Shown here one piece after another: positions 41,830-44,432 of a stretch of 44,432 nucleotides of DNA; position 1 is the stretch's first letter, and each line of letters begins with the position of its first letter. The DNA lies in NCBI GenBank assembly GCA_043799405.1, contig JAZDNT010000004.1, positions 70,206 through 114,637 of the forward strand. Direction: 5' to 3'. Below the pieces are notes generated by a model. That model was not told the origin of the DNA, ran no database searches, and saw nothing but the letters and a program-made list of their open reading frames with translations. The DNA is from Candidatus Kerfeldbacteria bacterium (GTDB lineage Bacteria; Patescibacteriota; Patescibacteriia; SBBC01). A program made the position numbers and the translations under genes.

Positions 41830-41851
41830 CGGCTAGCCCGGATCGTTATCT
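41830..41851 (-). mobile_element. Truncated attC-like half site
   Basis: On -: AGATAAC-gatc-CGGGCTAGCCG, the same 11-mer arm as the attC at 44042-44381; no partner arm found. Confidence 0.55.
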
Positions 41852-41874
41852 GGGCACTGTCCGAGAAATATTTC

Positions 41875-41931
41875 GACTAACGTTCACGAGTATACGATCG
41901 TGCGGAGCATATCGTATACTCGTTGTTAGCT
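41875..41931 (-). mobile_element. attC-like recombination site
   Basis: On -: AGCTAAC-a-ACGAGTATACGAT-(12 nt)-ATCGTATACTCGT-gaac-GTTAGTC. Confidence 0.8.
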
Positions 41932-42001
41932 GATGTGTTCCTTTTCTTTTGTCCCGCCAAGGCGGGACGCGGGTAAAAATCTTTCAAATTTCTTTTAGCC
42001 T

Positions 42002-43285
42002 TTATTTCAGTAAATCATCAAGCTCACAAGAGAGTAATGCCGACTTGTTGAGGACTATTTGCTCTTTTGGATTTAATTTATCTGCCGTCATGCGAATGAG
42101 TTTAGTTGTAATCGTATCACCCAGCATGACCCGGCTGGTTTTTTTAAAATATCTTTCTGTTTTCTGATAAAAAAGTGTGGCATACCGTCTCAACTTATCT
42201 TCTGAAGGTGGATGACTTGTCGCCCCATTGCTAGTAAATTCGATCATATCTTTTATTTTCTCACTTTCCTTGATTGGTATATTACCTTCGTTAAAATCAA
42301 TCCAGTAATCGCTCATCGAATACATTACACGGACCAATCCGCCATCTTCAGTTTTAAATGTATAAAGGAAAAAGAAATTATCGGGCATTAAATCGTGATG
42401 CACTCTGACGTGCGCTAATTCCGTCACGGTGCGGATTTTATAATCATCAAGCAATCGTAGATAGCTTTCCCGCCAGTTTCGAAGCCAGTTCTCGACGTAC
42501 GTGCGGTTCGTAAAAAGCGGCATAAGGTCCTGCTTGAGATTTTCGTCGCTTACTTTATTCATCTGCAACGTGAGCTTGTCAAAAATCGCACGCGGATTGT
42601 TGGTATCAATACCCTTGGCAATAAGATAATCGATATCAGGAACCACTTTTTTATTCATGTACCAAAGAAGGTCGTAGATATCGCGTCCTTTTTCCTCGTA
42701 CACCGCTTCGCCCACACCGCGGGTGCCACGCAAAAAGATGGCAGCTATCTTGCTTGCCATCAAAGCAGACATGTTGTAGGTCAAAATAACGAAAGAAAGC
42801 TGATCGCGGTTCATCGGCCGACGCTCAGTAACCGTTTTTGGAGCGACGAAATGATTAAGATCTATTTTTACATGGACCTGATTGGACGCGTGACCAAAGC
42901 CTAATGCTTCGCCAACAAGGAACTTTAAAAGGAGCCCTCTGCCGGTCGTTATTTTGATTGTCAGGAAATTAGGATCAGTGCCATACGTATCTTTAAAGTG
43001 ATCCTCTAGCTCTTTTTTCAGATCTGCTAAAAACGTTCCTGTTACAGCATGTGATACCTCAAAATCTAAATCCACTGACATGCGGTCAAGTCCGTGAATG
43101 ATCCGAAGCGCCGAACCGCCATACATCACCCATTTGCTGTATTCCGGATGATGATAAGTGAAGTTGAGAATGTAATACTGCAAAGCCTCTTTCAGCTTGT
43201 TTCTACGAGTTTCGGCATCAAGATCGCCATAAGCTGAGAGTTCATCAAGCTCTCTTTTAAGTATTGTTAGAATTTGTTCACTCAT
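42002..43285 (-). CDS. AbiEii-family nucleotidyltransferase toxin (type IV TA) with C-terminal extension
   Basis: YGGSALR, RMSVDLDF, SKI, RDIYDL; 8-nt overlap with the upstream antitoxin. Confidence 0.88.
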   Translation of the reverse strand: MSEQILTILKRELDELSAYGDLDAETRRNKLKEALQYYILNFTYHHPEYSKWVMYGGSALRIIHGLDRMSVDLDFEVSHAVTGTFLADLKKELEDHFKDTYGTDPNFLTIKITTGRGLLLKFLVGEALGFGHASNQVHVKIDLNHFVAPKTVTERRPMNRDQLSFVILTYNMSALMASKIAAIFLRGTRGVGEAVYEEKGRDIYDLLWYMNKKVVPDIDYLIAKGIDTNNPRAIFDKLTLQMNKVSDENLKQDLMPLFTNRTYVENWLRNWRESYLRLLDDYKIRTVTELAHVRVHHDLMPDNFFFLYTFKTEDGGLVRVMYSMSDYWIDFNEGNIPIKESEKIKDMIEFTSNGATSHPPSEDKLRRYATLFYQKTERYFKKTSRVMLGDTITTKLIRMTADKLNPKEQIVLNKSALLSCELDDLLK

Positions 43286-43895
43286 GAACGTGTTTTTTAA
43301 TCATGGTATTAAATTTTTCTCGCTCCTGGGTTTCCATTTCATCAATATCTATTCTTAGTTCCTTGACCAGTATATTAATGTTTTCCTGGTTCATGCCACG
43401 AAGCTGCCGAGTCTTGAAATATAGCAGATCATACAGTGCCTTTGAGGGTGAGGCGATAAAAAAGTCAAATCGACCTTTAACCAATGAGAAGCCTGAAAAT
43501 AAATCTTTCTTGATTGACTGATAGGCAAAATTTCCAGCCTTTGTCTGATACTCTCTTGTAACTTTCAACGTTACCGAGGTTACAGAATGGATAGCTTCCG
43601 TTGTGAGATTATAATACTGAAGCGCTGCCCATGAACTGACATATGACGGAGTTCGAATAACGTTGGCGAGATAAAACGAATAGGAAGCTTCACCCTTATT
43701 TTCATTGTAGAAATCTGAGGTTATATATAGCGCCCTCTTTAGCTGGAGAATTTCCTTGGATTTCAAGTAGCGGCTAATGTAGGTATCAACCGTAGTGCGC
43801 ATAAGCCCTAACTGCATTCCAAGCTGGTATACTGTGCTTTTACTGAAATGGGGCAAGCTTTTTAGCTGTTCTAAGAGATTTTTTCGGCTTTTCAT
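43278..43895 (-). CDS. AbiEi-family antitoxin/transcriptional regulator
   Basis: N-terminal wHTH (LKRALY), SYVSSWAALQYYNL, IASPSKALYD. Confidence 0.85.
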   Translation of the reverse strand: MKSRKNLLEQLKSLPHFSKSTVYQLGMQLGLMRTTVDTYISRYLKSKEILQLKRALYITSDFYNENKGEASYSFYLANVIRTPSYVSSWAALQYYNLTTEAIHSVTSVTLKVTREYQTKAGNFAYQSIKKDLFSGFSLVKGRFDFFIASPSKALYDLLYFKTRQLRGMNQENINILVKELRIDIDEMETQEREKFNTMIKKHVHE

Positions 43896-43900
43896 AAATA

Positions 43901-43936
43901 TGACAATAGTGTATCAGATGTGAAATGTAATGTCAA
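43901..43936 (-). promoter_or_regulatory. abiE promoter with an imperfect inverted-repeat operator
   Basis: TTGACA-17-TGA-TACACT; TGACATTA...TATTGTCA brackets the promoter core. Confidence 0.7.
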
Positions 43937-44041
43937 TTTAATGAATATTGAAGTTTTCCCTACTTGAAGGATGTGGGGAAAGAAATTTGAAAGATTTTTA
44001 CCCGCCCCGGGCGATAGCCCGGAAAATAAAAGGGGAATTTC

Positions 44042-44381
44042 AGCTAACGTTTCGGGCTAGCCGAAGTTTGGTCGGGTTACAATTTGCGCGGAGCGCCAAC
44101 CCGACCAAATTTGGGTGAGCGAGCTAATAATCCTATTTTATTCCTCGTAGTTTTTTGATCGTCCATTCAGTATGCCCCCAAAAATATTTCATGGAACCCA
44201 ATAGTGTAATAACGACAAATACTGTTCGCCATGTGTTTGATTCAAAAATAGAAAACCACAACTTCCATAAACCATAGGTGATTAAAATACCCACGAGATA
44301 AAACACTAACGACAGAATGACGATTTTTACTTTCATATATAGTAGATTATTAGCTCGCTCACCGGCTAGCCCGTGTTAGGT
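44042..44381 (-). mobile_element. Giant attC-like site containing a gene in its loop
   Basis: On -: ACCTAAC-a-CGGGCTAGCCG...CGGCTAGCCCG-aaac-GTTAGCT with an inner perfect 19-bp inverted repeat. Confidence 0.75.
44133..44336 (-). CDS. Small 2-TM membrane protein (67 aa)
   Basis: Two hydrophobic helices; fits exactly between the inverted repeats. Confidence 0.7.
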   Translation of the reverse strand: MKVKIVILSLVFYLVGILITYGLWKLWFSIFESNTWRTVFVVITLLGSMKYFWGHTEWTIKKLRGIK

Positions 44382-44393
44382 GATGTCGGCTGG

Positions 44394-44432
44394 CTATTTA
44401 TCAATCCATTTATATTTAAAAATACTCTTCCA
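44394..44432 (-). CDS. 3' end of an upstream cassette gene (...WKSIFKYKWIDK*), 5'-truncated by the window
   Basis: 13 open codons ending TAG 12 nt before the attC inverse core, the spacing expected for a cassette gene. Confidence 0.4.
   Translation of the reverse strand, partial: WKSIFKYKWIDK

Follow-up and report, generated by a model that had tools for sequence, protein, structure and literature searches.

The variable terminal structures of described attC sites measure 20–100 nt and are non-coding, and recombinases without the IntI domain are treated as non-integron (PMC4889954); in the statement for which that paper cites Messier and Roy (2001), the IntI insertion, of about 37 residues, is reported to be required for integron integrase activity. 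Where variable terminal structures are long, recombination in E. coli drops by as much as 4 logs under replicative conditions (PMC8946536); such structures are tolerated when the DNA arrives single-stranded and costly under replicative or extrusion conditions (PMC5371416; PMC8946536). Integron models and detection tools assume a short, non-coding attC and an integrase with the IntI domain. At the locus described here both assumptions fail and the cassette logic holds, and such arrays, with their second genes, are therefore invisible to standard annotation. The searchable literature yielded no description of integron-like arrays in CPR bacteria or of genes inside attC sites, and on integron or attC together with CPR or Patescibacteria it yielded only resistome surveys. 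How cassettes arise has yet to be explained, and a gene-bearing frame bears on how genes join recombination sites.

The locus lies near the end of the window (the whole stretch of 44 432 nt that was analysed), which belongs to the genome, of 1.03 Mb in four contigs, of an ultra-small (CPR-type) bacterium. Direct reading and a repeat search resolve a 340-nt structure there into a Y-shaped fold, made up of an outer stem, a side hairpin and a clamp enclosing an ORF (Table 1). The top strand of the site is the minus strand of the window, and we infer that the recombinogenic (bottom) strand is the plus strand. The outer stem consists of an R box of 5–7 bp, an asymmetric spacer of 1 and 4 nt and an L box of 11 bp. 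On the plus strand, AGCTAAC is followed by 4 nt and GTTAGGT is preceded by 1 nt, and the L boxes, there CGGGCTAGCCG on the left and CGGCTAGCCCG on the right, are complementary at 11 of 11 positions; read along the top strand, R''/R' (ACCTAAC ... GTTAGCT) and L''/L' (CGGGCTAGCCG/CGGCTAGCCCG) are nested inverted pairs that contain the AAC and GTT triplets. The 11-bp duplex has no extrahelical bases in its L box, nor do most of 47 related sites. The inner part spans 299 nt between the L boxes, the 67-codon gene included: the stop codon of the ORF is flush with the left arm of the clamp, a perfect 19-nt inverted repeat, and its ATG lies 8 nt from the right arm. The outer arms, the inverted repeat and the precise fit of the ORF to the loop are as the preliminary description had them; the side hairpin that it reported in one arm is also present, with a stem of 15 bp (44064–78/44098–112) and a loop of 19 nt instead of the bulged 12-bp stem given there. 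The folding of the bottom strand that it had suggested as a check gave a three-way junction, as did folding of the minus strand as DNA, with an energy of −64 kcal/mol against −37 ± 4 for dinucleotide shuffles (z about −6.4; none of 100 shuffles was as stable).

Table 1. Features of the gene-bearing site and of the cassette array around it (positions in the window; minus is the top strand)
Feature	Position	Strand	Basis
Gene-bearing attC-like site of cassette 3, complete	44042..44381	minus	Reading, repeat search, fold; strict-geometry detector, 0 mismatches
R'' box, top strand ACCTAAC	44375..44381	minus	Complements cassette 3's own start, GTTAGGT, in the adjoining contig; chain rule
L'' box, top strand CGGGCTAGCCG	44363..44373	minus	Repeat search, site detector
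Clamp arm near start codon, 19 nt, perfect	44345..44363		Repeat search
Payload gene, 67 aa	44133..44336	minus	ORF reading; four homologues, 33–56% identity
Clamp arm abutting stop codon, plus strand GGTGAGCGAGCTAATAATC	44114..44132		Repeat search
Branch 2, 15-bp hairpin, apex GCGGAGC on plus (bottom) strand	44064..44112		Repeat search, fold
L' box, top strand CGGCTAGCCCG	44053..44063	minus	Repeat search
R' box, top strand GTTAGCT, holds G|TT crossover	44042..44048	minus	Direct reading, chain rule
Cassette 1: 141-aa secreted-looking protein and 636-nt gene-bearing site			
Cassette 2: Nudix gene and simple site, 49 nt between AAC and GTT triplets			
Cassette 3: HEPN/AbiU2-like gene and the gene-bearing site 44042–44381, 332 nt between triplets			
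Cassette 3 body, last 51 nt; HEPN/AbiU2-like gene runs on into contig C2	44382..44432	minus	
Cassette 4: AbiEi/AbiEii and simple sister site, 49 nt between triplets			
Cassette 4 body: AbiEi 43278–43895, AbiEii 42002–43285	41932..44041	minus	ORFs, family searches
Sister site of AbiE cassette, simple attC-like: 13-bp L stem, 12-nt loop, apex GCGGAGC on plus	41875..41931	minus	
Truncated R''/L''-like remnant, top strand gataac-gatc-CGGGCTAGCCG, without L' partner	41830..41852	minus	

We consider that the 340-nt structure is probably the recombination site, equivalent to attC, of one cassette in an integron-like array, its branch 1 carrying a whole gene; this reading draws on the sequence and its predicted fold. 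A mere 51 nt separate the site from the contig end, and the last 98 nt of the window overlap, as reverse complement, the end of a second contig, C2, which begins inside the payload start codon. In the joined contigs, a join to the recombinase that rests on this 98-nt overlap, the array reads along the minus strand of the window as a divergent recombinase gene, an attI-like junction, four cassettes and a truncated remnant, with the recombinase on the plus strand and every cassette gene on the minus strand. The exactness of the overlap (44335–44432), with C2 starting in the payload start codon, implies that the assembly graph has a third branch there, which may reflect a payload variant in the population. 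Between recombinase and cassette 1 the junction reads ...AACGA|GTTGTCC. Each cassette begins with a GTTnnnn that is the reverse complement of its own end, nnnnAAC, in all three cases between sites here and in the attI-proximal one as well, and the sequence from TTAGCT of the R' box onwards is the first sequence of the AbiE cassette. To judge from its pattern, this complementarity is the trace left by excision and insertion at G|TT.

When both strands of the 1.03-Mb genome were scanned under strict geometry, zero-mismatch sites turned up nowhere but at the four sites of this array. One of the others follows the same plan as the site under study: that of cassette 1 (locus L001, 17491–18126; C2 493490–494125), in which a perfect 19-nt clamp surrounds 498 nt of coding sequence beside a side hairpin of the same kind. 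Its loop contains two ORFs, of 85 and 75 aa, in different frames; they may be two small genes or a single gene with a frameshift. The sister site has the AAC-1 nt-L''...L'-4 nt-GTT geometry of the gene-bearing site, which bears out the common frame and 12-nt loop reported for it earlier; its L-box sequence differs, however. The remnant beyond it, at which the array ends distally, has the look of a terminal site that has decayed. Cassette 4 has a promoter-like site of its own (43936 to 43908). The ends of the AbiE cassette (41925–41995 and 43979–44048) are inverted repeats of 56 nt with 75% identity, including a perfect 27-mer; they prolong the R-box pairing outwards, and other cassette bodies do likewise over 18–25 nt. 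The G+C content of the cassettes is 39–42%, against 54% for the genome.

The array recombinase is a 279-aa Xer/IntI-like tyrosine recombinase whose best match in the PDB is VchIntIA (2a3v, E 8e-47), with which its N-terminal SAM-like and catalytic domains align, including the RHR/Y-containing blocks. The alignment jumps between query residues 176–191 and chain residues 177–229, leaving 15 residues where VchIntIA (320 aa) has 52, and therefore the IntI-specific additional domain (the I2 helix region) is absent. Profile scores fall below the cutoff for both TIGR02249 (234 bits, cutoff 265) and archaeal XerA (212, cutoff 220). Of 81 related genomes, 34 encode homologues of about 275–290 aa with 43–80% identity, many of them close to contig ends, and the sequence upstream of these homologues was examined in 18 relatives. 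About 47 sites were found there, all of one fixed geometry, AAC-1 nt-L''(11)...L'(11)-4 nt-GTT, with 37 distinct L boxes. They fall into two size classes, 46–164 nt and 329–973 nt, with none between, and about a quarter are gene-bearing. Many of the short sites are three-way junctions with the junction motif of the site under study (GG-TTCG ... CTCACCC-AWATTT), in which branch 1 is a plain hairpin. The cassette-boundary rule fits 21 of 34 adjacent pairs in these arrays, where 2.6 were expected and 1000 shuffles gave at most 9; for pairs with a gene-bearing site the figure is 9 of 14. The best-supported reading of these sequences is that the platform is Xer-type, integron-like and without the IntI domain, and that the structure would be a bona fide cassette recombination site, recombined by the I2-less enzyme.

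The preliminary description had asked whether different ORFs occupy the loop between the same arms, and they do. Searches with AACACGGGCTAGCCGG in one genome per prokaryotic species and with CGGCTAGCCCGRAACGTT in metagenome contigs located the arms ACGGGCTAGCCGG/CGGCTAGCCCG in 51 further distinct public sites: 23 in species-representative genomes with both arms in register (326–768 nt) and 28 more in metagenomes (332–1080 nt), where four further gene-bearing sites have a near-identical L''. All 51 (326–1080 nt) hold an ORF of 60–310 aa, co-oriented with the array in 49. With the site under study included, 51 distinct payload proteins form 44 sequence clusters; more than half of the 51 have a hydrophobic segment, and one is a clear P-loop kinase (AAA_33). 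Just one distinct empty version, cctaacACGGGCTAGCCGGCTAGCCCGaaacgtt, was found (L170, L206 and L207), and because the 51 complete sites are gene-bearing, carrying a gene is the normal state of this arm family. In the empty version L'' abuts L' directly (ACGGGCTAGCCGGCTAGCCCG), giving a 7-bp hairpin with a 4-nt loop at the cassette end. Four short hybrid sites at metagenome loci (L148, L149, L177 and L184) combine foreign R''/L'' halves with CGGCTAGCCCG-AAAC-GTT, so that their L boxes cannot pair; from their sequences they look as if adjacent sites had fused at the conserved junction motif. The records of the hosts carry the labels Peregrinibacteria, Gracilibacteria, Buchananbacteria, Magasanikbacteria, Parcubacteria, Saccharibacteria, Peribacteria and 'Patescibacteria group'. 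Some MAG records titled 'uncultured Gammaproteobacteria' (L068, L078, L083, L098, L115 and L129) carry CPR-type arrays, and these labels are evidently wrong; L078 shares its 624-nt site with a contig of a roughly 1-Mb genome from the order to which the genome of the window belongs. An arm family that is nearly always gene-bearing across many CPR lineages is therefore a stable, recurrent design and not a one-off insertion or, as had been suggested, an intermediate of cassette genesis. With at least 44 unrelated genes at the same internal position of one frame, it amounts to a natural experiment on gene–site linkage.

The frame and its contents behave as modules. The site under study and those of L128 and L129 have an identical frame for 23–25 nt rightwards from AAC and for 74–79 nt leftwards from GTT, around unrelated payloads of 67, 160 and 141 aa, and identity among the three genomes breaks off within the clamp, at mirror positions. 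Conservation across the family extends over the outer part of the clamp (TTCG/TGAG-CGAGC ... GCTCGCTCA), the nine outer bases of the start-proximal arm (TGAGCGAGC, top strand) among it, and the inner part is A/T-rich and payload-specific. In most cases the inner inverted repeat extends as far as both the start and the stop codon. For two homologous payloads, which end in GAG TAA and GAA TAA, the 5' clamp arms are TTACTC and TTATTC; the arms match the GAG/GAA difference, and the repeat has therefore been kept complementary across a synonymous change. Branch 2 is of at least four types, freely combined with the same arms. A second recombination core (AAC/GTT) at the clamp base was considered and rejected, the TGAG variants having no GTT and the 3' side no AAC.

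The payload protein of 67 aa has two hydrophobic segments and the motif KYFWGHTEWTIKK. A word-based homologue search gave no match; an exhaustive search of 1.8 billion representative proteins returned four homologues (33–56% identity) with the conserved motif KYFW-HTEWT. The three that could be placed on contigs lie in ordinary operons, among unrelated neighbours and with no flanking hairpins, and the 67-aa gene is therefore a real and conserved small membrane-protein gene that also exists outside cassettes. The protein, which the preliminary description thought might be a defence or exclusion factor, has no match in PADLOC, PHROG, Pfam or NCBIfam. A functional pairing of payload and cassette-body gene was rejected, given that the payload homologues adjoin unrelated genes. 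Neither a promoter scan nor reading of the sequence revealed a promoter-like site or Shine–Dalgarno sequence for the 67-aa gene, which would presumably be expressed by read-through.

The sites are asymmetric between strands. Of 95 distinct sites, 45 have the apex motif GCGNAGC on the bottom strand and a single one has it on the top strand. The oligonucleotide d(GCGNAGC) forms an exceptionally stable DNA mini-hairpin. At the clamp base, a conserved TC/CT mismatch on the sense strand is a tandem G.A pair on the bottom strand. Whole-site folds are more stable for the bottom strand in 15 of 24 sites as DNA and in 20 of 24 as RNA, figures confounded by coding composition. The dnaA and dnaN genes lie at 5.0–7.7 kb and cumulative GC skew rises from there; the plus, or bottom, strand is therefore the lagging-strand template, on which DNA is available in single-stranded form. 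This position matters because long terminal structures are tolerated with single-stranded DNA. The cassette genes (41800–47000, joined) are all head-on to replication, and most core genes from the origin (about 6–8 kb) to the array are co-directional with it.

We envisage that the plus strand, when single-stranded in the cell, would fold into the Y, that the recombinase would bind the outer stem through its R and L boxes and that, as in an integron, strand exchange would take place at G|TT. Neither of the inner branches would have a part in the chemistry. Branch 1 would be a permissive position, which in this arm family is regularly filled by a whole gene, and the perfect clamp would zip the 212-nt loop shut so that L'' and L', 299 nt apart, could still meet; the gene, the second of two in its cassette, would then travel together with the site. 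How long a loop can be tolerated in a folded recombination site, and whether a clamp can rescue it, is the practical question that this raises. The earlier proposal of an attC-type recombination site with its own cargo gene is thus supported by anatomy, fold, the boundary rule and the occurrence of the same arms elsewhere, recombination itself being the predicted part.

The clamp and its ORF might instead be an independent mobile element, similar to a MITE or TIR element or a nested cassette, whose insertion into resident attC sites is secondary and specific to branch 1. Unrelated payloads in the same frame, each with its own inner inverted repeat, the symmetrical break of identity within the clamp, and the short gene-less branch 1 hairpins that other arm families show at this position would all suit such an element. 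Secondary insertion predicts, however, that empty sites should be common, and one distinct empty site stands against 51 complete and four near-identical gene-bearing ones. There is also no transposase in the array, no target-site duplication (the clamp, GG...CCC, is flanked by no direct repeat) and no AAC/GTT core at the clamp base. The clamp, moreover, reaches as far as the stop codon and into it, and changes along with a synonymous codon difference, which suits a repeat maintained in place better than the end of a transposon. We regard an independent element as unlikely, and the 'payload-in-hairpin mobile unit' of the preliminary description gives way to a gene that would move within a two-gene cassette bounded by G|TT crossovers.

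A different explanation is that the inverted repeats around genes act as RNA, either as long-range stems processed by RNase III or by stabilizing or insulating cistrons, and are not needed for DNA recombination. Each gene in these arrays, body gene and payload alike, stands tightly between the arms of an inverted repeat, which take up most of both untranslated regions, and the cassette genes have no Shine–Dalgarno sequences, both of which this explanation would accommodate. Against it, the apex motif is biased 45:1 towards the antisense (bottom) strand, the clamp base has its mismatch on the sense strand and its tandem G.A on the bottom strand, and sense-strand folds are no more stable than those of the bottom strand, with coding composition again confounding the comparison; scoring of clamp mismatches without gaps, for selection on RNA as against DNA, was noisy owing to bulges. 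The RNA explanation would in any case leave the outer stem free to serve in recombination. We judge it very unlikely that the repeats act at the RNA level in place of recombination, and a purely RNA-level role is disfavoured; an additional RNA role alongside recombination would be compatible with what was found. That a chimeric or collapsed contig end has placed an unrelated ORF between repeat halves is scarcely credible, the closeness of the site to a contig end and the start of C2 in the payload start codon notwithstanding, since one contig contains the entire site, the second independently confirms R'', L'', the clamp arm and the 5' leader, and the recurrence of the architecture inside more than 50 independent contigs from other assemblies excludes misassembly, which the preliminary description had allowed for, as a general explanation.

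Returning to the site as a cassette recombination site, we offer the tentative suggestion, doubtful as it is, that branch 1 of the conserved frame could be a gene-loading position at which new genes become cassette-borne. To judge by the homologues of the 67-aa gene, the genes would come from ordinary operons and enter a resident frame at the apex of its hairpin; intramolecular template switching there would then lengthen the inverted repeat and make it perfect as far as the start and stop codons, which would account for both the flush fit and the codon-matched arm; and the conserved handles of 25 and 79 nt would allow payloads to be swapped between genomes. Were this so, it would provide a concrete route to the unsolved origin of integron cassettes and would show integron-type capture working without an IntI domain.

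Among known systems, the closest are integron attC sites with large branched variable terminal structures, such as the Vibrio cholerae repeats, in sedentary chromosomal integrons. The likenesses comprise the imperfect palindrome R''-L''...L'-R' with AAC and GTT, an unpaired spacer between R and L, the G|TT crossover with a cassette start that complements its own end, an array divergent from a tyrosine recombinase, structure kept where sequence varies, and an inner part that may branch. The differences lie in an inner part that here measures 299 nt, and up to about 1 kb elsewhere in the arm family, and holds a complete gene; in an L box that is perfectly paired, with no extrahelical bases, and a spacer fixed at 1/4 nt; and in the conserved three-way junction motif (GG-TTCG/TGAG ... 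CTCACCC-AWATTT). The bottom strands here lie on the lagging-strand template, unlike those of 25 of 30 chromosomal integrons (PMC5371416). As to the recombinase, IntI as represented by VchIntIA is its best structural-database match, aligned over both domains, whereas the IntI-specific domain is missing, the TIGR02249 score is below cutoff and that for XerA is nearly as high. The attP of CTX-type phages, folded single-stranded, is a forked hairpin recombined by XerCD, which is Xer-type and has no IntI insertion. It differs in being a phage integration site at dif, with no cassette array and no gene in the hairpin. Synthetic attC sites in coding sequences (Nivina et al., 2020; PMC7439510) resemble the present site in that structure takes precedence over sequence and coding and site functions share the same DNA; there, however, the site was written into a gene, whereas here a natural gene lies in the loop of the site.
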